This document shows positions 1,771 to 64,000 of a stretch of DNA of 64,000 nucleotides, in pieces (position 1 is the first letter of the stretch; each line of letters begins with the position of its first letter). The position numbers and the translations under genes were made by a program. Below the pieces are notes generated by a model. It saw nothing but the letters and a program-made list of their open reading frames with translations. It made no database searches and was not told the origin of the DNA. The DNA is from Octopus vulgaris (taxonomy: Eukaryota): the NCBI GenBank assembly GCA_951406725.2, contig OX597822.1, positions 49,600,001 through 49,664,000 on the forward strand, read 5' to 3'.

Positions 1771-3409
1771 TCTATTAGCAATACTTTATATTTACTAATC
1801 TTGTCAAATTCTTTCGCCGCTATATTGTGATCGCAAGAAATACTCATGTCAATTAATAAACCCATCTTTTTTGTCTGATCTTTTATAATAATATCCGGTT
1901 TATTAGCTTTTATAGTTTTGTCGGAAGTACCATAGAATCAATTCATTTTCTCCCTCAGTCAAATCTTTAGGATGGTGTTTATACCATTTGTTAGCGGTTT
2001 TGATTTTATAATGCCGACATATTGACCAGTGCAAATACTGGCCGCCTCTGTCATGTCTTGCTTTATATTCTACAGGTGCTAAGACTCTACAGCCTGATAT
2101 TAGGTGGTCTATAGTTTCAATTTCATTGTTACAGAAACGGCATTTTGTGTCAGCTCCATTTTGTATCACTTTAGCTGGGTAGTTCCGGGTTAATAAGAAT
2201 TGGTCTTGAGCAGCTGATATGAAACCTTCACTCTCTGCTTTTAGCCCTGAGCTTCGTAACCATTGGTGTGTGTGTTTCTGGTCGATATCAGCTTGTTCGC
2301 TACGGGCCACATACTTGCCATGCAGAGGTTTCTGTTCCCATCTGTTAGCTAATTTTTCATGTGCTTTTGTCTTTGCAATTAATTTTATTTTCTTTGCAGT
2401 AGCAGTTGGCGCATTTCCTTCAACCTGATCAATCTGGTAGGTATCTAAGAGATCAGTAGCGAATTTTTTGATGAGAATATAGTGAAGTTTTTTTGGTCTT
2501 TCATGTTTTTCAACAAGTTTTAACATCCAATCGTTGGTTGCTTCAAGGTATTTAGCCAGTCCGATTGTGGTGGTTTTGTACGTAAGTTCAAGCTGGATCA
2601 AGCCTCGATCTCCCTGAGCTCTGGGAAGATAAAGATGATCCACGTCTGCCTTTGGATGGTGCATCTTATTACAAGTCAGTAGCTTGCGGATTTTTCTGTC
2701 AATTTTCATTATTTCACTGGTATTCCAGTTAAGCACATGGATGCTATAAAGAACAACTAGGACTGCTAAGGAATTTATGACTAACACCTTATTATTTGCA
2801 TTCAGCTCAGACTTCAGGACTGCTCGAACTCCTCTATAACATTCCTTCCTAACCTTCTCTTTGATGCTTGCATGCTGGATACCAGAGCCTTCATTTATTC
2901 CTAGGTATTTGTAGGTTTGTTCCTGCTCAAGTTCCTTTATTACTGTTTCGACATCTAATTCGATTGAACTTGACTTTACCAATTTCCTTTTCTTAAAAGT
3001 TGCTTTGGCACACTTTTCAAGGCCAAACTCCATCCCGATATCATTACTGAATCCTTTCACAGTATGTAGTTGTCCTTCAAGCTCTTCATGATCTTTGCCA
3101 TATAATTTTAAATCATCCTTATAAAATAGACGGCTTATTTTCCTGTTGTCAATTTTGTAGCCTTTTCTATTCAGTTCACTTGAGAGTAGTATTAGTGCTA
3201 TGCAGAAAATTAGTGGTGAACGTGAGTCACCTTGGAAAATGCCACAGTTTATGCTGATATTTTTTGAGCGCAATACTCCATTAAAATGATATAATTGGAG
3301 CTTCGTGTTCCATAGTGACATTATACTTCAAAAAATCTGAAATCACAGGAGACATTTTGAAAATGTCCAGCGATTTCAGAATCCACGAATGTGGTATACT
3401 GTCAAAGGC

Positions 3410-4784: not shown

Positions 4785-5262
4785 GGATGGAGTGAAACTA
4801 GAAACTTTATTTAGCGCAACAATCGTTTCGGCTTCCTTCTGCTCTGCTCCCTAGTGGGTGTGGGACGATGTAATGACATCAGATGCCCTGCACAGTACAG
4901 GGAGCCTCATCAGGTGAGGTAGTATGTTTCAAAAGTTTTAAAATTTACATTTCATTTTCGCTCCGAGTTATATGCTGGTGGTGTGTTGCTTGTAGTTCAC
5001 ACACATGTTTTCTTATCAATAACTTCCTGACCACAACTTTCCTTACTCCACCAAAATGTGTGTGAACTCCTAGCATATAACTTAGAGCGAAAAAGAAATA
5101 TAAATCTTATTACTTTTGAAACATTTTACGTCACTTCACGAGGGTTCATGTACTGTACGTTGCATGTGATGTCATTACATTAATCCACACCCACTAGGGA
5201 GCAGTGCAGAAGGAAGCTAAAACAATTATTGTGCTAAATAAAGCTTCTAGTTACACTCCGAC
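4785..5262. mobile_element. Inverted-repeat PLE terminal-repeat (pLTR)-like element
   Basis: Arms at about 4785-4900 and 5148-5262 are diverged reverse complements. They contain an HHR-type GAAAC..., AATAAA, and end near (TA)n. Confidence 0.6.
4814..4916 (-). ncRNA. Type I hammerhead ribozyme motif with long helix II insert
   Basis: CAC-CUGAUGA-GGCU-(~70 nt)-AGCC-GAAA-CGAUUG-UU-GCG. Helix I is short; the other arm has GUG at the pairing position. Confidence 0.55.
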
Positions 5263-6990: not shown

Positions 6991-7032
6991 ATATATAAAT
7001 GTATATATGTATGTATATATATTTCTGAGTCC

Positions 7033-7155
7033 CTTTCTGTAGAAGAGCGTAGGCTCGAAACGTAAAATACTTTTTCTATTCCTGAGCGTTATACTAATAC
7101 ATCTGTTTGTTTTCTACACCACCTGCCTTCGTCTTTTGTTTTTTTCGTAAACTCT

Positions 7156-7160
<5 letters not shown>
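7033..7160 (+). mobile_element. PLE pLTR 3' end with atypical HHR-like motif (CUGUnGA-A-GAGC/GCUC-GAAACGU)
   Basis: ctttCTGTAGAaGAGCgtagGCTCGAAACGTAaaa plus tail cctgagcg..tactaatac..tgtttgt..cacctgccttcgtcttttg. The same unit occurs at 50322-50488 and 62697-62822, and ends at (TA)n. Confidence 0.65.
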
Positions 7161-7196
<36 letters not shown>

Positions 7197-7202
<6 letters not shown>

Positions 7203-7755
7203 ATACTAGCCATCTCAATATGGCTAACCACTAGGGGTGGGTGTTACTGTAGCTTTTTAGCCCCAGGAGATCATCGTCTCCAGCTGGCTTTAGACACAAT
7301 TTCTGTGCCCTTATGATATTTGCAAAGGGAGGTCATCCCCTCTCGTAAACCTAAGTGATACGCATGGACTGCAGTTTCGAGATTATTGTCTCTTGTCAAC
7401 ACACGGTAATCACGGGTTTTCGATGAGGAGAGACCTGTTTGCGAATATCTATTTAATGTTTTTCACAGTAACCACTGTCACTGATTTCGAAAAACGGTTT
7501 GAAAGCAGTAATAAATCTCTGAACGCGATGCAAACAGTAAGCGTATCACTTAGGTTTACGAGAGGGGATGACCTCCCTTTGCAAATATCATAAGGGCACA
7601 GAAATTGTGTCTAAAGCCAGCTGGAGACGATGATCTCCTGGGGCTAAAAAGCTACAGTAACACCCACCCCTAGTAGTTAGCCATACTGAGATGGCTAGTA
7701 TACTTTACGTTGTCGAGCGCTTACTGTTTACATCTCGTTCAGAGAATTATTATTG

Positions 7756-7760
<5 letters not shown>
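7197..7760. mobile_element. Retrozyme-like HHR element, family A, inverted configuration, flanked by (TA)n
   Basis: 167-bp inverted arms at 7197-7363 and 7541-7707 with 2 mismatches seen. 7718-7760 repeats the reverse complement of about 7503-7543, implying a permuted monomer of ~357 nt. Confidence 0.75.
7361..7405 (-). ncRNA. Type I hammerhead ribozyme, U3-A8 core variant
   Basis: CGUGUG-UUGACAA-GAGA caauaa UCUC-GAAA-CUGCAG-UC/CAUGCG. Helix I 6 bp, helix II 4 bp, palindromic ACUGCAGU helix III, GUC site. Confidence 0.8.
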
Positions 7761-7797
<37 letters not shown>

Positions 7798-10202: not shown

Positions 10203-11532
10203 TAAAATAATATGTTACTCAATAGTCAAGATAAAACTTCAGATGCTGAAGTGGAAATCCACAACACCATCTCTTCGGTTATCTGGCCATCTGAAAAAAC
10301 GCTATGAGAAAATACCGTTATATAAAGAGAAATTATTGTGTTATAATTATATAAAATAAGATTAAAATTTCATAGTAAACACGTAAAACATGGCTAGTCA
10401 TACGCTTACATGTGCGTTCGCGGATCCACGTGCGTACGTATACGTCACTATGAAACGTACACATCATCACTCGCATTTTTCGCCAAATATATACGCATAT
10501 ATATACAAACTCATACACACACACATGCGTACCGTCAAAGTTCATACATACGTCTATATACGCACAAGCACAATAAAAACCCTGGTTAAAGGTAACATAA
10601 AAAAAAACATACAGAATTTTACAAAGCATAAAAACCACGTTCATATACGAGCGTGCTCTTATGCACTCATACACACACACGCCCATATATGTACATACCC
10701 GAACATGTTTATATACGCATACACACACACGCATATACAAAAAATGAATATACATATGCACCCCCCCCCAATAAAAAACCTTAAAAAAATGGAAAAATGC
10801 TAAGTAAAAACGTCTATATATATATATATGCATTCTTATGCCCGCACACATGCACATATCTAAAACTGCCCACTCATACATATTCACACACGTATACAAA
10901 TAAATCTATATACGCGTCTATATAGGCACAAGAAAAAATGCAGGATAAAAAAGTACAGAAAAAATTATGTGTGAAAATATTAAAATATATGAAATAATAA
11001 AAGGTATAATGGGATAGAAAACTTTTTGGGACATAATATAGAAAGCAAGTTCTATCTGTTTTCTTTAGGGGACCCAAAACGTAACAAAAATTTTGTCACA
11101 TATGGGCATGACCCGAAAAGTTCTGTCCTTGAGTTTAGACATGTAGTAGGGTATAAGCTGCTTTTCCAGATAAGCCATCTCTCCATGTCGCGTAGACCGC
11201 ACTTTCCGCTGCCGTTGGTGTAGGGCTTACATTTGGCCAAAATCTTCCAATGGATGTTATAATCGACACTTTTATCTTTTAAAGACCAAATATGAAAATA
11301 TAAATATAACACAATATTTTCCCTTTATATAACGGTATTTTTTCATAGCGTTTTTTCAGATGGCCAGATAACCGAAGAGATGGTGTTGTGGATTTCCACT
11401 CCGGCATCTGAAACTGAGAGTTTCATCTTGACTATTGAGTAATTGTAACATATTATTTTATAGATAAATTTACTCTATTTACATAATATTGAGGTCTCTT
11501 TCTTTCTTTTGTTATCTTACCGTTTTTACCAA
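10196..11532. mobile_element. Truncated PLE: GIY-YIG C-terminus (-) with inverted pLTR copies
   Basis: ORF 11052-11312(-) HIWSLKDK..YNIHWKILAKCKPY..GKCGL..LNSRTELFGSCP. Inverted repeats at about 10196-10335 and 11314-11463 contain an HHR-like CCGAAGA-GAUG..CAUC-UGAAACUgagAGUU. Both ends lie in (TA)n. Confidence 0.75.
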
Positions 11533-13825: not shown

Positions 13826-14229
13826 GTGTGTGTGTGTGTGTCGAATAATCCACATTTAGTATTAAACGTTACAATGTCAAATAGAATATCCAAGCAGAAT
13901 ATTACAATGCAGCAGTAGCTAGTGCGGAATACAACAAAAAAGATAAAACATAGTCCTGACGATGGAGCAGTTAATATAAAAATGATAATAATAAAAATAT
14001 CCAAAACGTATAGAGGTTGGTATGTTAGTGAACGTAAAGTAAACGCGAATTACGGAAGGGAAAGGCATAAATTCGAAATCAGGTTCGAATAGTGGAATAA
14101 ATATGAATATAAATGGAAATAAAGATGGAAAGGAAGATGTTGGGAATAAGGATAAAAAAATTAACATATATTCCATCTACATAACTATACCAAAGACGGT
14201 AACAATTACACTAAACGTAACAATAAGCA

Positions 14230-14635
14230 TAATAAAGGTCGGATTTTATTGTATAATCTGTTGTTCGGATTACATGTTCTGTCTAAATTTGCTAAGGAGA
14301 TAAATAAACATTTCCCTAAATCCAGTAGATATTATAAACTTTTTACTAGGCATATGGTGAAACTGGCCTGTGTAACGTCAAATAACCTGGAATACCATAT
14401 TCATAAATTTAACAATAGTACGCTGAATCAAGCAATCGCAAATTATGAAAATATCATCCAAGATAGCGTGGATCCAGGAAATAAGGAGAACCATAACAGA
14501 GGAAAACATAGTCATAGTAAGTCAAATGATCCTCATATGTGTAGAAATATCAACTTTAACATAGGTAATATAAGTAACTATGGAAATGTTGTAAGGATTA
14601 GTAACAATATTATTTTGATAAAGTTATTTCTATAG
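14230..14635 (+). pseudogene. PLE RT-EN linker fragment
   Basis: SKFAKEINKHFPKSSRYYKLFTRHMVKLAC..SNNLEYHIHKFN followed by an Asn-rich stretch. Confidence 0.6.
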
Positions 14636-21512: not shown

Positions 21513-21887
21513 GTATAAATAAGCATGTACATAAGCTTAATAATGTATGCATACATACACATATATGTATGTTACGGTTTGTTTGTGCCATTAAAATATG
21601 CATCCATAAAATATATTAATAAAGTGTGGTATTAAGCGATCTGTTTTCGTAATTAATAAATTTCAGTTTCGCATAATACACATTTTTACTGAAACAATTT
21701 CAAATAATGAAAAATGAACTTATGATTCGTTGGGACATACTGCAGCAAAAATTGCATCGAGAGGAACTGTTGTTCAGTGCTCGAGCGAGCATCAGTCGTG
21801 AAACGGTCGCACCATGCTGATGAATTTGTCCAGAAACCAAGTTCCGTCACGACTGAGAATGCTAAAAGCCTTGGTTTAGACTATAAG

Positions 21888-22300
21888 TTTTGGTGAAACT
21901 TTTCGAAAATTTTTTTTTAAATTTCTGGGAAAAATTTTCAAGAATTTTTTCAATAATCTTCGGAAAAATTTTCGAAAAAATTTTCAAAAATTTTTGGAGA
22001 AAATTCAAAGAAATTTTTGAAAAAGTTTTGGAGAAAATTTTCGATAAATTTAAAAAAAATTTTTGTGGAAAATTTTCAAAAAGTTTTTGAAAAATTTTAG
22101 AAAATTTTCAAAAAATTTTTCAAAAATTTTGTGGAAAATTTTCAAAAAGTTTTCAAAAATTTCTGTGGAAAATTTTCGAAAAATTTTTCAAAAATTTCTG
22201 GGGAAAATTTTCAAAAAACTTTTGAAAAATTTCTGAGGAAATTTTCAAAAATTTTTCAAAAGTTTTTCGAATATTTTCCCCCAAAATCTTTGAAAAAAAT
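21888..22300. repeat. Degenerate A-tract/T-tract minisatellite built from GAAAATTTTC-like units
   Basis: Repeated ggaaaattttcaaaaa/tttt blocks with about 10-12 bp spacing. Confidence 0.85.
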
Positions 22301-22483: not shown

Positions 22484-22879
22484 ATATCTGAATCGCTGTA
22501 TTTAAGTCTGCAGAAACCTTGCAGGGTCTAGGATTAAGGTAAAAGGTTTTTTTTTCCAATCACTTTCGGAATTACAACAATTGGTGGCTTGGAGTTTTAA
22601 CTGCTATTTCTAGCGAGTCAGATATCCTATTCTTTGTGTTTGAACGTACACTGTATTCTTCTTTGAATAATATATAGTCTATTGACTAATTTTTTCTTTC
22701 TCGCTAGACCACTGGTAACTAAGAATTTTTCGATGAATATTCTTGCTACCCTATGATTTTAATTAATGAGTGACAATAAAGAAAAACAAAATATTGAGAA
22801 TAATGGTGGTAATGAAACTGAAGCCCTTGATGGTGACAGTATTACAACCGGCAGGCTCTGAGATACTGGTCCGATTCCA

Positions 22880-25392
22880 GCCTGTCATTATCCAATAAGG
22901 GACCAGCATGCATGGCGTAGATGGAATAAACAAGTCAATGCTGTTTTCATGGTGTGTTACTACCTGAGCAACAGCGTAGACGAAAATACTGTTCATCTTA
23001 GGGGAGACCGACAACGTATGTATGTTCAATGGAGAGAAAGAAGATTGTTTCAACTCGCGGAACAAATATTATTTGATCAATCTAGAGCAATAAGGAAAAA
23101 TCGTTGGTTCACAGAAGTAGAGCTCGGAGCTATCAAAAGACGAGTATTGGAAAACAGCAGCAGAGGAGGCTATGAAAATAAGTCCCTATTGACAAAAGTA
23201 ATCTCATAGCAGAAAACAGAGATGAAATCTCTAATAAACCACAGAAAAGGATCAATGATAGCTTGCTAGATGAGAGATGGTTTGGACGAAAACAATAAAA
23301 CGAATGGTGACATGACAGAAGGGCAAAAGGCAAGCTACGACAGAATAGAGGCAATACTATAGGAGAGCGATAGGGACATTATTTTCAACCTTAAAAAGGT
23401 TAATCGTTGGAAATTGAACCAAGGAACGAAAAATGTGAATGTCATTCTGAAATACATCAGAACAAAAAACATCACAGAAACAAATAACTTGATCAATTCA
23501 GCAAGTATTCTTGTTGCAGAGAATGTGGGTGTTGATGTCAAGAAAAAGAAATATAATGGGAGTGACAAAAGAAAATATCCATAGTGGAAAATAAGAGTAC
23601 GAGTGGGGGTAGATATGCTCTCGAAAGACATTTCTGGGTAAGATCGAAAAGAGAAGAGCAGGGGCTTAAAAGCGAACAAAAATACAGGCCCCTGAACAGG
23701 AAATATGATATTGAAAGAAAGGGCCTGAATGAGGTAATGGGGGAACTGAAACAGTATTTCGTTGCAAAGAAAGCAAAGATGGTAAGATACAACCAAACAA
23801 TGCAGGGTGACCAGCAGAATAGGTTATTCAGGGCAGATCAGAAGAGATTCTACAAAGAAATAAATGCAGAGTGTACAGATGAAAAGCTGATACCTGAGAA
23901 CATTGCAACATTGGGAGTGACATCTGCAGCGAAACAAGGAACACAAGAAGGATGTTGAATGATTGCAAGAACTGAAACAAACAATAGTCTGTTCAAAACA
24001 GGCATAACTGGTCATTTCAGTTAAGAAAGTGAAAGAAATCAGCAGACAAATGGGCAACTGGAAGGCCCCGGGACCACATAGAATCCAAGGCTACTAGATC
24101 AAAAGTTCTGGGGAATGTCATGCACAAATAGCTGCGAAACTCAACACCAAGTAACACCAGAGTGGTTGACAATGGGATGGGCAGTACTGTGCGCTTCAAA
24201 AATATCGAAAAAGGCAATACGGTAAATAATTACAGGCCGATATCCTGCTTGCCACTTATGTGGAAATTATTCACTAGAATAGTCTCAGAGTCGATGTACG
24301 AACATCTGGTAAAAAATGGAGTCCTGCTACATGAGCAGAAGAGGTGCAAGCGTAAATGCAGGGGTACCAATGATCAACTCTTGGTAGACAAAACTGTACT
24401 TAGAAACTGCAAGAGCACGAAAACTATTTAGAAGTATCATGGATCGATTATCGTAAGGCGTACAATATGATCCCACGTTCTTGGATTATGGAACGTATGA
24501 ACCTATTTGGTATTGCATCGAATGTTGAGCGATTGCTTAGGAAAAGTATGGTCAAGTGGAGGATGGAACTGACAGCATACGAAAGAAGTATAGGGACGAC
24601 AGAAATCAGGAGAGGCATCTTCCAAGGGAACTGCCTGTCCCTACTGATCTTTGTACCACTAACTCTGATTCTGAGGAAAGCAAAGGATGGGTATATATTC
24701 GAAAGCCGCCCACAAAAAATCAACAACTTGTTATTAAGTTCCCTCGTTGATACGGTATACCTTCAGTGCTGATATAAGAATGGAGTTCAAACTGAAAACG
24801 TGTTGTGTGTTAGTTTTGAAGAGAGGTAAAATCAAATATTTGGACGGGCTAGCGATAAGGTCGGGGGAAGTTATAAAGCAGATAGAAGAGACGGGCTATA
24901 AGTACATGAGGATATTGGAAATGGATAAATTGATGGAGAAAGAAATGACAGAAAAATTTAAGGTGCAGTACTTATGCAAAATGAATATGTTTCTTAAGTC
25001 GAAATTAAACGGACAAAGGTTTTAGCTATCAACATCTGGTTGGTTTCACTACTTAAATATGGGGCATGGGTAATTACATGAACAGTAGACGAACTAAACA
25101 GCTTAGACAGAAAGAGAAGGAAGTTGCTGACTAAATATGGGATATTCCACCCAAAAAGTGACACTGACAGACTGTATGTACCAAGAAAAAGAGGGGTAAG
25201 AGCACGGATTGGATGCGAGAACACAGCATTAGAGCAGAAAAAACAGCATACCATGGTATGTAAAAAATGCCACAGAACCACTAGACAACACACCAGAAAG
25301 TGATAAGCGCAGAATCTGTGGACAAAATGGTGAAACCGTATGGCATATTACCAGCCAATGTACTCCACTAGCCCAGAAAGAATATAAGAGAA
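22880..25392 (+). mobile_element. Decayed near-full-length Dong/R4-type non-LTR retrotransposon (3' RLE missing)
   Basis: RRWNKQVNAVFMVCYY; QQNRLFRADQKRFY; WKAPGP; [16 protein letters not shown]; [11 protein letters not shown]; WIDYRKAYNMIPRSWI; RRGIFQG; FHPKSDTDRLYVPR; RICGQNGETVWHITSQC. Many stops and frameshifts. Confidence 0.9.
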
Positions 25393-28839: not shown

Positions 28840-29057
28840 AATTAAATTACACCATCTAGGAAATTACATATAATAGAAATATTAAAACTAAAATAACAAT
28901 AAAATACCAATGATTAAGTAAATTGCAAAAATAATAAAAACGTATATATATACGTTTGTATTATTTTTTTGCAATTTACTTAATCATTGGTATTTTATTG
29001 TTTTTTTAGTATTAATATTTCTATTATATGTAATTTTCTAGATGGTGTAATTTAATT
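28840..29057. repeat. Long near-perfect palindrome centred on a short (TA)n at about 28947
   Basis: aattaaattacaccatctag..ataccaatgattaagtaaattgcaaaa mirrored by ttttgcaatttacttaatcattggtat..ctagatggtgtaatttaatt. Confidence 0.9.
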
Positions 29058-29061
29058 CCAC

Positions 29062-30620
<1,559 letters not shown>

Positions 30621-42127: not shown

Positions 42128-42130
<3 letters not shown>

Positions 42131-42385
42131 GGTTGTATACTGTCAATCTAACAAGAACGTGACAGTAGGGGGTACACCACCGTTATATAGCCCTAGGAGG
42201 CATCGAACGCCTCCTGACAGCTCGACACATTTTATCCTGTGTCCTTATATACACATACGAAGGGGAGACAAACACCACCAACTGCCGGAACTGCATCTAG
42301 GGACACCGTGTTTCAGGATCATTGTCCTTCATCGGCTTAGAGTAGCAGACACCGGTCAGCTGGCGATGTCTGTCTCGACTTCGTA
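42128..42385 (-). mobile_element. Retrozyme-like HHR element, family C (partial)
   Basis: HHR at 42296-42341, the shared structured motif at about 42180-42272, terminal hairpin UACUGUCA/UGACAGUA, then (TA)n. Confidence 0.7.
42296..42341 (-). ncRNA. Type I hammerhead ribozyme (CCGAUGA core)
   Basis: UCUAAG-CCGAUGA-AGGA caauga UCCU-GAAA-CAC g GUG-UC/CCUAGA. Confidence 0.75.
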
Positions 42386-48938: not shown

Positions 48939-49090
48939 GGAGTAAACTCATAAATGTGAAACAATGTGGAAAAAAGAGTACTCAAATACCAGTGGTAGAG
49001 TAATATGCTTTATTTAAAGCAGCAGAAAATTCAACAAAACCTGTTACTCTGAGTTTCCCGTTGCCGTTCGTCGGACAGTTTTTGCTAGAA
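48937..49090 (-). mobile_element. pLTR with minimal HHR (49041-49078)
   Basis: aaaaCUGU-CCGACGA-ACG gcaa CGG-GAAA-CUC a GAG-UA/ACAG, followed by AAUAAA and a tail into (TA)n. Confidence 0.7.
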
Positions 49091-49175
49091 TGGAACCGAT
49101 ATGTCAATTCTATCCAGACTATTACAAACACTACACCTTAGTGTAGCTTTAAATAAAGTATATATATATATATAT

Positions 49176-50487
49176 CATAGCTCCTTCCCTGACCCTACCT
49201 CTCAACCTGGCTCGTTCCTCTGCTCCCGCCCACGTTGCCGCACTTGCCCTTACTTCTCCAACACCACCCTCCTCACTGGCACCCATCATCGACCCTTTCG
49301 CATCATCAACTCCTTCACCTGCACCTCCAGCAATATTATCTATTGCGTCTCTTGCTCTCTCTGCCATTCCCTGTACATCGGACAAACGGGACGCCGCTTG
49401 GCTGACCGGTTCGCGGAACACCTTCGTGACATCCACCTTGTCTCCGGTCACCGGTCTCACGCCATTTCCGCTCACCGGTCACTCCTTGCAACACCTGTCT
49501 GTGTTCGGTTTCTCCTTAAACAGAGGCCATCCGGATTCCCGTTTGTGCCGTGAACAGGAATTAATCTTCTCTCTTCGCTCTTATGCGCCATTTGGTCTCA
49601 ACTCTCCCCCATCCTCATCTACCCCCTCTCCCCCTCCTCATCTAACCTCCCCCGACCCCTACTTCTCTTCAGTCCTTCATCCTTTCACCCCTACTCCTCT
49701 TCCCTTCTTCCCTCTTTCTCCCTCCTTCTTCCCTCTTCCCCTCCTCTGCTCCCTCACTCCCCTTCTCTCCCTCCCCCTCTCCCTCTATCCTCCCACCTCC
49801 TCTCCCCTCCTCTTCTCCTCTCCTTCCTTCTCCCCCTTCTCTTCTCCTCTCCTTCCTTCTTGCCCCACCCCTTCCCCCTCCTCTTCTCCCCTTTCCTTCT
49901 CCCCTCTTCTCCCCTTTCCTTCCCCCCTCGTCTCCCCTTTCCTTCTCCCCTCTTCTCCCCTTTCCTTCTCCCCCCTCCCCTCCCCCTCCCCTCTCCCCCT
50001 CCCCTCCCCATCTTTTCCTCTCTCTACACTACACCATACGACTTTACACATCACATCATATATACATACACACGTCTAGACCTCTCATACGCACTAATAC
50101 TCTCTCATACACACACACACACACTCTTCTCATACACACACACACACACACACTCTTATGTTTGAGCGGGGTCATTCAACCCTATTATCTCCCCTAATTT
50201 CGCTCTTGCGTCTCATGTTTGATCTTTGACTTCTGGCCGAAATCAGATCGCCATGTTGATTCGCTAGCTTTTGCACGCATATTTTTTTCTCTCCTTCTTT
50301 CTGTGATTTTTTCTCTGTGTATCTTTCTGTTGAAGAGCGTAGGCTCGAAACGTTAAAGACTTGTTTCATTTATATTTCCTGAACGCCATACTAATACAAT
50401 TGTTTGTTTGTATTCCACCTGCCTTCGTCTTTTGTTTACTTCTGTAAACCTGCCTTCGTCTTTTGTCTATTTTCATAAAGCTTCCCG

Positions 50488-50488: not shown

Positions 50489-50533
<45 letters not shown>

Positions 50534-50690
50534 CGCCATAATAATATGGCAGTCTATAAATAAGACTAAAGCTGTCGCTGATTAGCTCCAAGAGGCCATC
50601 GCCTCTAGCTAGCTATTTGACACACGAACCTGCGTCCATTACAACCTTCGAACAGGGGAGGTCAGCCGCTTCACCTTGCTAGTCAGACAT

Positions 50691-50731
50691 CTGCAGACAT
50701 GTTTCACGGTTGTTGCCCTTTATCAATGCAG
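50691..50731 (-). ncRNA. Type I hammerhead ribozyme, U3-A8 variant (downstream copy)
   Basis: CUGCA-UUGAUAA-AGGG caacaa CCGU-GAAA-CAUG-UC/UGCAG. One helix II mismatch. Confidence 0.75.
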
Positions 50732-51050
50732 TGTAGCCAGAACCAGCAGGTGTCGTTACTGACCGTCTGTTCGAAGATTTTATTTACCTAGTTACAGTGG
50801 AATACATTCACTTGTTTTCAATAATAGAAATATTAAAATTACTAAGTCTCTCTAAAGGAGATTACGGCAGCGTTACTGGGTATTAATATTTATCGCCATA
50901 CTAATATGGCAGTCTATAAATAAGACTAAAGCTGTCGCTGAATAGCTCCAAGAGGCCATCGCCTCTAGCTAGCTATTTGACACACGAACCTGCGTCCATT
51001 ACAACCTTCGAACAGGGGAGGTCAGTCGCTTCACCTTGCTAGTCAGACAT

Positions 51051-51091
51051 CTGCAGACATGTTTCAGGGTTGTTACCCTTTATCAATGCAG
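51051..51091 (-). ncRNA. Type I hammerhead ribozyme, U3-A8 variant (upstream copy)
   Basis: CUGCA-UUGAUAA-AGGGU aaca ACCCU-GAAA-CAUG-UC/UGCAG. Helices I and II are perfect; helix III is the palindrome ACAUGU. Confidence 0.85.
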
Positions 51092-51319
51092 CGTAGCCAG
51101 AACCAGCAGGTGTCGCTACTTACTAAACTTAATTCACTTGTTATTTCTTAGCTCAAACTTTTATTGCTATTTCTATTTCTAAATTTCCTAGCTATTTTTT
51201 AAATAATTACATTACTTTAGTTATATCTCGTTTACCACTCACTATACTTACTAAATTAACTCAATTGTTATTGCTTGGCTCTAACTTATATTGCTATTTC
51301 TATTTCTAAATTGCCTACG

Positions 51320-51735
51320 AAAAGTCGAGTGGATCTTATGCGTACACGCCCGTATTGCATCAGTGAACTTATTTAACACAGCGTTGTTGTAATTTTTCAA
51401 TATAGTATATGCCTACTTTATGCATAAAACGCATCTAGTAGACCCAATTCTATAACGGGAAGCATGCGCAAGGATAGCCCATGATATTCTGAATTCAACA
51501 TTCCTTTCCTTAAGGTCATTAACATGTAATGCCAATGTTGTAGAGGTCCTATATTTAGGATTGTTGAAAGAGCTCAGGTGGGATCGATACCTCTGCTTAA
51601 AGCCTACTGTGCTTCCATTATATATTGGAAAATTGTCGCCAGGAAAATGTAGTTTATAAATGTAGAGTTGAGGCTCAAGGAGGTAAGAGAATAATATATA
51701 TTGGAAGCACAGTAAACTTTAAGCATAAGGGAGGC
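51320..51735. pseudogene. PLE GIY-YIG endonuclease split by an inversion
   Basis: (-) 51603-51320 FKQRYRSHLSSFNNPKYRTSTTLALHVNDLKERNVEFRISWAILAHASRYRIGSTRCVLCIK*..LNK..ACTHK. (+) 51625-51730 ENCRQENVVYKCRVEAQGGKRIIYIGSTVNFKH. Confidence 0.85.
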
Positions 51736-56928: not shown

Positions 56929-56986
56929 TACCCATATCGGTGATTTCGAACTTGGTAAATGATCACTTTGTTCTCGTCAGTGAGTA
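56929..56986 (-). ncRNA. Canonical-core type I hammerhead ribozyme
   Basis: UACUCA-CUGACGA-GAAC (18-nt loop) GUUC-GAAA-UC acc GA-UA/UGGGUA. Partial inverted copy at about 57208-57255. Confidence 0.8.
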
Positions 56987-62300: not shown

Positions 62301-62696
62301 TACTTAGTATTTCATCTGCGGTTTATTGGCTCTGTTATCTATGCTGACTGCATTGTTACTAGTTGAAAGTGGGTTCTCAGTATTATCCGTGATATTATTG
62401 CACCGACACCACACACCATCATCCTCACACCCACACATGATCATCCGCACACCCACACACCATCATCCACATACCCACACATTACAGATGCACAAACACA
62501 CGCACACATCCACACAGTCAGTAGCCCCTAGCCACACACAAGTACACATTCTTATATATACATACACGCACGTGCACCTTCGTTTTGGGATCACTAATGC
62601 TATATTATCCCCCCTTATGTCTAACCCTCCTGTAAAAGCTTTTTTCCAGCCAGGCGCCATGCTTTTTATTCTCTCTCTGTTTATTTTCTCTTATTC

Positions 62697-62822
62697 CTTT
62701 CTGTTGAAGAGCGAAGGCTCTAAATGTAAAAGAATTTCTCTTTCCTGAGCGTCAAACAAATAAATCTGCTTGTTGTTCATACACCTGGCTTCGTCTTTTG
62801 TTTTTCTGTAAGTTTCAACTAT
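62697..62822 (+). mobile_element. pLTR 3' end with decayed HHR-like motif
   Basis: ctttCTGTTGAaGAGCgaagGCTCtaaatgtaaaag with the tail as at 7033 and 50322. Confidence 0.6.
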
Positions 62823-62946
62823 ATTATTGATTCTTGTATATCTACTATTATTAGAATTCAAGAATTAATGTTGTGTGGTATTTGAAATACGTATATTTAT
62901 TTCTATATATGCACGTGCATCAGCTTCACCATGTTACTTCAAGCAA

Positions 62947-63200
62947 CCACAGACTAGTTTCGGAGTGTTTGCCCCTTAAAAATGTGGAGTAGCCGAACGC
63001 AGTAGGCGTCGCTGTTGACTGTGTTCGAAGGTGTATATATATTCAGTGGAAGCAGCCACTGATTTTCAAAAATAGAAATATAATTTCTAAATCCCCCTAA
63101 AGGAGAATACTGCAGAATAATGCTGGGCATCGCCAAGCTAACATAGCAGTCTAGAAATATAGGACGAATGCTGCCGTTGATTAGCTCCAAGAAGTCGTCG

Positions 63201-63205
<5 letters not shown>
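62947..63205 (-). mobile_element. Retrozyme-like element family B/D, diverged partial monomer with dead HHR core
   Basis: Colinear with 50691-50965. HHR at 62947-62987: CCACA-UUUUUAA-GGGG caaaca CUCC-GAAA-CUAG-UC/UGUGG. Confidence 0.7.
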
Positions 63206-63280
<75 letters not shown>

Positions 63281-64000
63281 GGTGTTTGTGTGTGTATAAG
63301 CATGTGTTCTTATACATGTATTACAGCAATAATAAAGGGACTGGATGCATGTTTGCTGAGTACAATATTCTTTGCTAAGTAATGCATGACTATTACACAT
63401 TGACAAGTAACATTTTAGATTTGTATTCACAGATTTTCTTTACTGAATTTGTTATGAAATACTGTGGTTTGTGAAGGCTATATGCATATAAAACCGTTTA
63501 TTATAATTGTTTCAAATGAAACTTACTCAAACATTATCTTTTCCATATTAACCAAATTCACTAACATTCAATAATAATAGAAAATTATGAGCATTTTGAA
63601 TCATCAGAAACCAAGAAATTGCTTCCGCCGAAAATGTATTCACTCTACATTAAAAGTACGTGCGGTGATTAGAAATTATGCCGAAAATTCAGTTATCTCT
63701 TTAGCCACTGTCTATTGTAACATGATGCGAACAGCTTAAATTCCATTGGATTCACTGCTATTACATTTATACTCAAAATATCAGATTAATCAAATTTTCA
63801 GATTACAGAGACGATTCAGAACTAATCTCGTGATTTATATTTAGCCGCTGGTAAATAAGCTATAATGTTACATGGCAGTTATTACATTGAGTTAACTCTT
63901 AACATTTATTGAAGATCATTCTCTAATGTATGGATTTTGAGAATCTTTACTTATCAAAACACCTTATTAAGACTGTGAGCGAGCAAACCGAATTGATTTC

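Follow-up and report, generated by a model that had tools for sequence, protein, structure and literature searches.

Non-LTR retrozymes of metazoans have been described as tandem repeats of 150–450 bp, with a type I hammerhead motif and a GC content below 50%, whose expression yields linear and circular RNA (PMC7229834). The units measure ~350–390 bp in mussel and 330/350 bp in axolotl (Cervera and de la Pena 2020, PMC7229834); PLEs are proposed as mobilisers in the same work, and circularisation by host ligase has been shown for the retrozymes of both animals. Li, Clavereau and Pollet (10.64898/2026.07.22.740005) have argued that non-LTR retrozymes derive from PLE terminal repeats, with cleavage in one of the nine elements assayed. 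Insertions of PLEs themselves are known to take the form of partial tandems with a tail of 30–40 bp on one end and, frequently, a 5'-truncated copy in inverted orientation at the 5' end, and a bias towards (TA)n is reported for the clades with a Cys-rich linker (bioRxiv 10.1101/2021.04.23.441226). The PLE protein of the anole cleaves AT-rich DNA on both strands, extends both and uses two internal starts in a stem-loop, the tail being the sequence between these two sites; uncut RNA is its main template and ribozyme cleavage is unnecessary for insertion (PMC11167929). For the giant squid genome, 235 hammerhead loci have been counted, the part of that account consulted giving no description of a unit (PMC6962438). 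Literature searches on octopus retrozymes, cephalopod hammerhead ribozymes and hammerheads of Octopus Penelope elements turned up no account of the family reported here; Repbase/Dfam, subscription papers and the supplement to PMC7229834 may hold it.

The window analysed, 64,000 nucleotides of Octopus vulgaris contig OX597822.1, is AT-rich DNA full of microsatellites and retroelement remnants. The repeats around the locus resemble those of octopus, and, as a weak hint, Mollusca is the most frequent phylum in a look-alike cluster for one protein of the window. At 7197–7758 it contains two arms of one 357-nt non-coding unit that point apart, head-to-head, one read on the minus strand from 7543 to 7197 and the other on the plus strand from 7541 to 7758. 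We hold with good confidence that these two pieces of a hammerhead-motif repeat, set in (TA)n, are a non-LTR retrozyme inserted in trans by a PLE reverse transcriptase/endonuclease. The parts of the locus are as follows.

7160–7198, no strand: (TA)n left flank, target
7197–7543, minus strand: left arm, 347 of the 357 nt, from phase 181 to phase 170 counted from the predicted cut; it crosses the ribozyme site and its 3' end runs into (TA)n
7543–7406, minus strand: spacer, the first part of the left arm
7465–7478, minus strand: spacer landmark hairpin, a local hairpin followed by an arm of a long-range helix
7361–7405, minus strand: type I hammerhead motif with stem I of 6 bp, U3/A8 core, stem II of 4 bp and stem III of 2 bp with a palindromic loop
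7405–7400, 7399–7393, 7392–7379 and 7378–7367, minus strand: stem I, core, stem II, and GAAA with stem III of that motif
7224–7209, minus strand, and 7680–7695, plus strand: conserved hairpin, just before the commonest 3' end
7541–7758, plus strand: right (inverted) arm, from phase 4 to phase 221, beginning 3 nt past the predicted cut
7708–7717, plus strand: linker cgttgtcgag, 10 nt, between the hairpin part of the right arm and a 41-nt spacer start
7708–7758, plus strand: 51-nt extension made of the linker and the spacer start, on one end only
7758–7794, no strand: (TA)n right flank, target

On the minus strand the left arm runs through spacer, hammerhead motif, a downstream motif and the hairpin at 7224–7209 before it enters (TA)n. 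The right arm, from 7541 to 7707, is identical to the post-ribozyme part of the left arm at 165 of 167 positions, and the 41 nt after the linker match the start of the left arm at 37 of 41 (BLAST E 2e-10) before (TA)n follows. The two arms overlap by 3 nt (7541–7543). An earlier note on this DNA had read minus 7543 to 7197 as spacer, hammerhead, motif and terminal hairpin, and plus 7541 to 7760 as motif, hairpin, cgttgtcgag and the start of the spacer; every one of these parts could be located. Its unit of ~357 nt was equally borne out, once round the unit being 357 nt here and 360 nt, as a period, at 50529–51123, the second measurable unit. The GC content is 0.43 for the 357-nt unit and 0.42 for the 360-nt unit. 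The looped 357-nt unit has no coding capacity, its longest Met-ORF being 47 aa, and the locus has no direct terminal repeats, that is, no LTR pair. Because (TA)n lies on both flanks, a target-site duplication, which in non-LTR retrozymes exceeds 4 bp where there is one, is unreadable. An inverted 5'-truncated copy adjoining the 5' end, a (TA)n target and a one-sided extension are all traits of PLE insertions, and by this analogy the extension at 7708–7758 is likely a PLE-type tail, seen at one locus and 51 nt long against the published 30–40.

Cleavage of the hammerhead motif is predicted on the minus strand between 7367 and 7366. A descriptor scan of the window that tolerated core variants returned complete motifs at 7399 and 51086 and one unrelated match at 56980. 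The latter is a lone CUGACGA...GAAA match on the minus strand with a 6-bp stem I, unrelated to the unit, and may be a chance occurrence.

A profile built on the two units and run over the window gave four loci, of which three lie outside the 7.2-kb locus.

50529–51123, minus strand: homologous locus with 1.66 units in tandem (598 nt), period 360 nt; a hammerhead motif with U3/A8 core is present twice; 3' end at the hairpin, followed by (TA)n
62915–63205, minus strand: partial copy of ~299 nt with a decayed U3/A8 core, spanning the hairpin–spacer boundary and the ribozyme
42128–42380, minus strand: fourth, more distant copy, profile E 3.5e-7; C3/G8 core with U4 changed; 3' end beyond the hairpin and followed by (TA)n

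The sequence-only model gave no fifth locus in the window, a match at 63534–63585 with E 0.91 being disregarded. Aligned end to end, the 357- and 360-nt units are identical at 218 of 339 positions (64%), and their global score of 204 compares with a mean of 96 and a maximum of 126 in 300 shuffles. The 62.9-kb copy is nearer to the 50.5-kb unit (215/277, 78%) than to the 7.2-kb unit (159/248, 64%). On sequence comparison, then, the diverged 'families' are one superfamily, homologous over the whole length, and not independent designs. The earlier note had stressed one monomer length kept despite divergence. The length is indeed conserved (357/360); equal length is in part a consequence of common descent, the units being 64% identical. 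The spacer landmark that the note had proposed as shared withstood a regular-expression search, with exactly three matches in the window (7488, 50819 and 63067), all on the minus strand; it is present once in each spacer-bearing locus.

Within the 50.5-kb tandem the repeats differ at 8 of 235 positions, a difference that age alone could explain. Tandem Repeats Finder missed this 1.66-unit repeat, and the window contains no longer tandem array of the unit. An AT-rich duplicated sequence (51123–51330) abuts the 5' end of the tandem and holds an 11-nt echo of the spacer landmark; it has no significant homology to the retrozyme unit.

All four loci carry the type I hammerhead motif. Stem I is 5–6 bp, stem II 4 bp and stem III 1–2 bp, with a palindromic stem III loop in three loci, and the 3–8 core pair is U-A in three copies and C-G in one. 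Across the four loci the positions of stems I–III and the 3–8 pair are paired in 42 of 44 cells, with change on both sides in 9 of the 11 pairs. None of 500 shuffles reached this value and slid controls were 27–50% paired, a comparison that is favourable and inflated because the structure was drawn by hand from the same four related sequences. The TTGACAA core is not to be read as a decayed CUGANGA, since three families have it and its change is compensatory. Among natural hammerheads U3-A8 is a known, active covariant (PMC3088659), and such cores are present in the PLE ribozymes of Schistosoma (PMC4209133). The stem sizes agree with those of the canonical metazoan type I motif, which cuts as a dimer, and are unlike the stems of the minimal PLE ribozymes (PMC4209133). 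Rfam gave no match over the window at gathering score, no hammerhead family among the 150 of 175 window matches listed at E ≤ 1, and on the locus at E ≤ 10 three matches, none of them a hammerhead; that standard ribozyme models can overlook such copies is accounted for by the U3-A8 core. No match was obtained when metagenome and viral contigs were scanned for the exact motif. Taken in isolation, the hammerhead motifs are no more stably folded than shuffled sequences (z +0.4 to −1.7).

The unit as a whole is strongly self-paired. Folded as a circle, the ribozyme strand of the two units gives z −5.0 and −5.3, against −3.1 and −4.0 for the other strand (60 shuffles), and for the natural stretches z is −5.9 and −6.2, none of 100 shuffles being as stable. 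The segment 7449–7438 pairs over a long range with 7326–7315, the second arm lying ~45 nt past the ribozyme; in the two full units compared, both sides have changed in 3 of the 9 pairs of this helix and the pair probability is 0.84–1.0 in both. The fold closes across the ribozyme; closure across the hairpin–spacer boundary is weaker, with a probability of 0.04 for one unit and 0.55 for the second and with 3 of 4 pairs invariant.

In public assemblies the family is highly repeated under several organism labels. Part of the stretch is found in 20 of the 24 runs listed (10 studies, four organism labels), with a share of at least 0.2 in 15. Comparison of 7345–7758 with four runs under three organism labels gave 2675, 106, 2469 and 1022 contigs, mostly 90–99% alike; the runs are assembled contigs, which as expected gave no molecule ends, and contig depth is not a copy number. 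In three of the four runs the stem II partner positions 7382 and 7389, each counted by itself, show variants at matched depth, and among the 40 of 45 variants listed there is none at 7399 or 7394. Loose ends at 7378 in two runs carry a CUGAUGA core, the reverse complements having been read by eye. The hairpin–spacer boundary is bridged by at least 31 nt on each side in 4 of the 32 pieces listed. Because contig cover runs continuously across it, this boundary is normal family sequence and not a one-off rearrangement.

The ends of the copies can be placed on the unit by counting phases from the predicted cut. The five arms in the window run 181 to 170, 4 to 221, 293 to 170 (598 nt), 90 to 28 and ~316 to 166. 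The 5' ends are scattered. Three of the five 3' ends lie just past one hairpin (the chance of three of five falling within 10 nt is ~0.024, calculated post hoc) and a further one lies 51 nt beyond this site; four run into (TA)n, and the 62915 arm ends at phase 28 without clean (TA)n. Free permutation of the 3' ends round the looped unit is not supported, three of the five lying at one hairpin. Nor does the joining of end to start indicate circular permutation as had been thought. Ligation of ribozyme-cut RNA would fall at phase 357/1; the predicted cut at 7367/7366 is ~170 nt upstream of the hairpin-to-spacer join, which is ordinary internal sequence. The supposed 'end' is probably a preferred mid-unit start of reverse transcription and not an RNA end, the conserved hairpin likely marking the main such start, and the permuted look likely results from reverse transcription that starts inside the unit. 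The same join, noted earlier at 62947–63205, does cross the hairpin-to-spacer boundary, but that copy is ~299 nt and yields no unit length.

Four of the five arms extend across the site of predicted cleavage, and a single locus contains 1.66 units; the template was therefore a multimer or a circle. Both an uncut multimer and a circle give the products seen here, and the data fit either. What had been put forward as a circular or concatemeric template under selection thus stands in so far as the template exceeded one cut-to-cut unit and compensatory change keeps the structure; a circle is not required, since priming within the unit by a PLE reverse transcriptase is enough to account for its permuted appearance.

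By analogy with the PLEs, and with PLE-like GIY-YIG and reverse transcriptase remnants present in the window, we infer mobilisation of the unit in trans by a PLE-type protein, and the following course of events may be envisaged. Tandem copies would be transcribed as multimers, and in these the palindromic stem III would allow dimeric cleavage by two ribozymes, freeing units of ~357 nt for possible circularisation by a host ligase. At a (TA)n tract both strands would be cleaved by a GIY-YIG PLE protein, and reverse transcription would be primed at two fixed internal sites ~50 nt apart, the hairpin and the end of the tail, the two cDNAs meeting head to head and joining over 3 nt. Arms that span the cut site would need an uncut multimer or a circle as template; the right arm, a single case that stops 3 nt from the cut, could be a run-off from a cleaved linear unit.

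Within this PLE-driven insertion, a circular RNA as the template, with the permuted ends as arbitrary points of entry, is possible though tentative. The crossing of the cut site by four arms and a left arm of 347 nt, just under one unit, are consistent with it, as are the helices that close the fold across the ribozyme and, less firmly, the hairpin–spacer boundary, and related retrozymes are abundant circles (PMC7229834). Against it, one site takes three of five 3' ends, the cross-boundary helix is weak, and an uncut linear multimer, the dominant template for the anole PLE (PMC11167929), gives the same products. It is quite unlikely that an autonomous PLE outside the window left the copies as truncated pseudo-LTR remnants, the 357-nt period then being that of the pLTR repeat and not of an independent replicon. 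Such remnants would account for the PLE anatomy and for U3-A8 cores like those of PLE ribozymes (PMC4209133), and in Xenopus, among 57 retrozyme families, 24 are similar at their termini to elements already known, of which PLEs make up 21 of the 22 (10.64898/2026.07.22.740005). The unit nevertheless closes on itself, 50529–51123 repeats at 360 nt with no ORF between its two ribozymes, the 7.2-kb locus has (TA)n at either end, and the stems are canonical in size and not those of the minimal PLE motif. The local PLE-like end is also dissimilar: comparison of the unit with four regions of the window, including the PLE-like terminal region and a GIY-YIG remnant, gave no similarity above shuffles.

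Two further origins are highly improbable. A satellite DNA that spread through recombination or unequal crossing-over, without passing through RNA, would fit the tandem arrangement at 50.5 kb and the many related contigs, but not copies that are dispersed, variably 5'-truncated and joined to (TA)n at a preferred 3' site, nor an RNA fold kept by compensatory change. We give as little credence to a LINE-mobilised SINE inverted by L1-style twin priming. The inversion with its 3-nt overlap and the LINE-type reverse transcriptase remnant at 1903–3327 are in its favour; no tRNA gene, Rfam RNA head or poly(A) was found, and the inverted arm is a second copy of the same sequence and runs 51 nt past the end of the other arm. 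Twin priming is not known to give a duplicated inverted arm with such an extension.

The PLE-driven insertion of a retrozyme may be compared with the described systems. The family is likely a member of the non-LTR retrozymes, a class already published (PMC7229834), as judged from its type I hammerhead in each unit, 357/360-nt length, GC below 50%, tandem repetition, lack of coding sequence and strong self-pairing, features found at the level of the family. With the metazoan members described there it has in common the unit size, one type I motif per unit, a short palindromic stem III, a GC content of 42–43%, tandem or partial tandem copies and PLE remnants in the same genome; it differs in its mostly dispersed partial copies, its U3-A8 core in three of four loci and its clear PLE-type insertion anatomy. 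Monomers, dimers, dispersed copies, co-occurrence with PLEs and proposed trans-mobilisation are shared with the retrozymes of Li, Clavereau and Pollet (10.64898/2026.07.22.740005). Their link to PLEs is pLTR similarity in vertebrates, whereas here it is insertion anatomy, with a dissimilar PLE-like end nearby. The 7.2-kb locus, with one motif, and the 50.5-kb locus, with 1.66 units and a stem II mismatch in its second motif, fall outside the definition of an 'active' retrozyme given in that source. The EN+ PLEs (Neptune/Nematis/Naiad, Craig et al. 2021; anole PAc, Frangieh et al. 2024, PMC11167929) likewise show partial tandems, an inverted 5'-truncated copy, a one-sided tail, (TA)n, internal starts in a stem-loop and a hammerhead motif. 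In contrast to these, the octopus unit has a tail of 51 and not 30–40 nt and no ORF; the reverse transcriptase and GIY-YIG endonuclease that define an autonomous PLE are absent from it.

The mover of animal retrozymes has so far been argued from co-occurrence and terminal-repeat similarity, to which the locus adds a PLE-type footprint on a unit that lacks an ORF. With its high copy number and with ends that can be mapped, the family also makes the choice between circle and multimer testable from genome data. A wider scheme, which we think rather doubtful, is that of a large superfamily, probably octopod, with U3-A8 and C3-G8 cores, copied from circular RNA by a sequence-unrelated PLE enzyme that recognises only a conserved RNA shape (hairpin and tail domain) fixing the two internal starts. 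Were it true, the genomic ends would be direct footprints of the PLE-driven mobilisation of retrozymes, so far only proposed, and would delimit a structural signal of 360 nt that is enough for insertion in trans at (TA)n.

Remnants of retroelements in the window include the following.

49089–49650, plus strand: GIY-YIG endonuclease remnant with an upstream Cys cluster; Pfam E 0.015 on 49089–49553, below the cut-off
29056–29988, plus strand: PLE-like reverse transcriptase remnant, from a look-alike search
1903–3327, minus strand: LINE-type reverse transcriptase remnant, Pfam RVT_1, E 2.9e-9

Among look-alikes of the GIY-YIG remnant, GIY-YIG is found on 18–27% of members, and a protein search with it gave 26 relatives among 53 candidates; by published description it appears Neptune/Nematis-like. 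A frame at 14165–14635 on the plus strand looks related, by eye only, to the remnant at 29056–29988, with no match in Pfam, and frames at 22862–24772 resemble by eye the LINE-type remnant.

Three of the four retrozyme loci have a plus-strand copy of a separate repeat family no more than 200 nt away, at 7024–7152, 50314–50449 and 62696–62805; this family is ~82% alike and has a hammerhead-like motif of its own. At 7.1 kb and 50.5 kb its copy and the retrozyme lie tail to tail with a single (TA)n between them; shared targeting of (TA)n would explain the pairing. The 50.3-kb copy, which follows the GIY-YIG remnant, is probably a PLE terminal repeat.

Other repeats in the window are a decayed, MITE-like inverted repeat of ~470 nt at 4789–5259 with a 62% self-match, and an inverted pair of ~100 nt at 10218–10316 and 11334–11439, 90% alike and 1.1 kb apart, which are possible DNA-transposon ends. 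A tandem array at 21885–22297 is made of units of ~11–12 nt with internal inverted symmetry.
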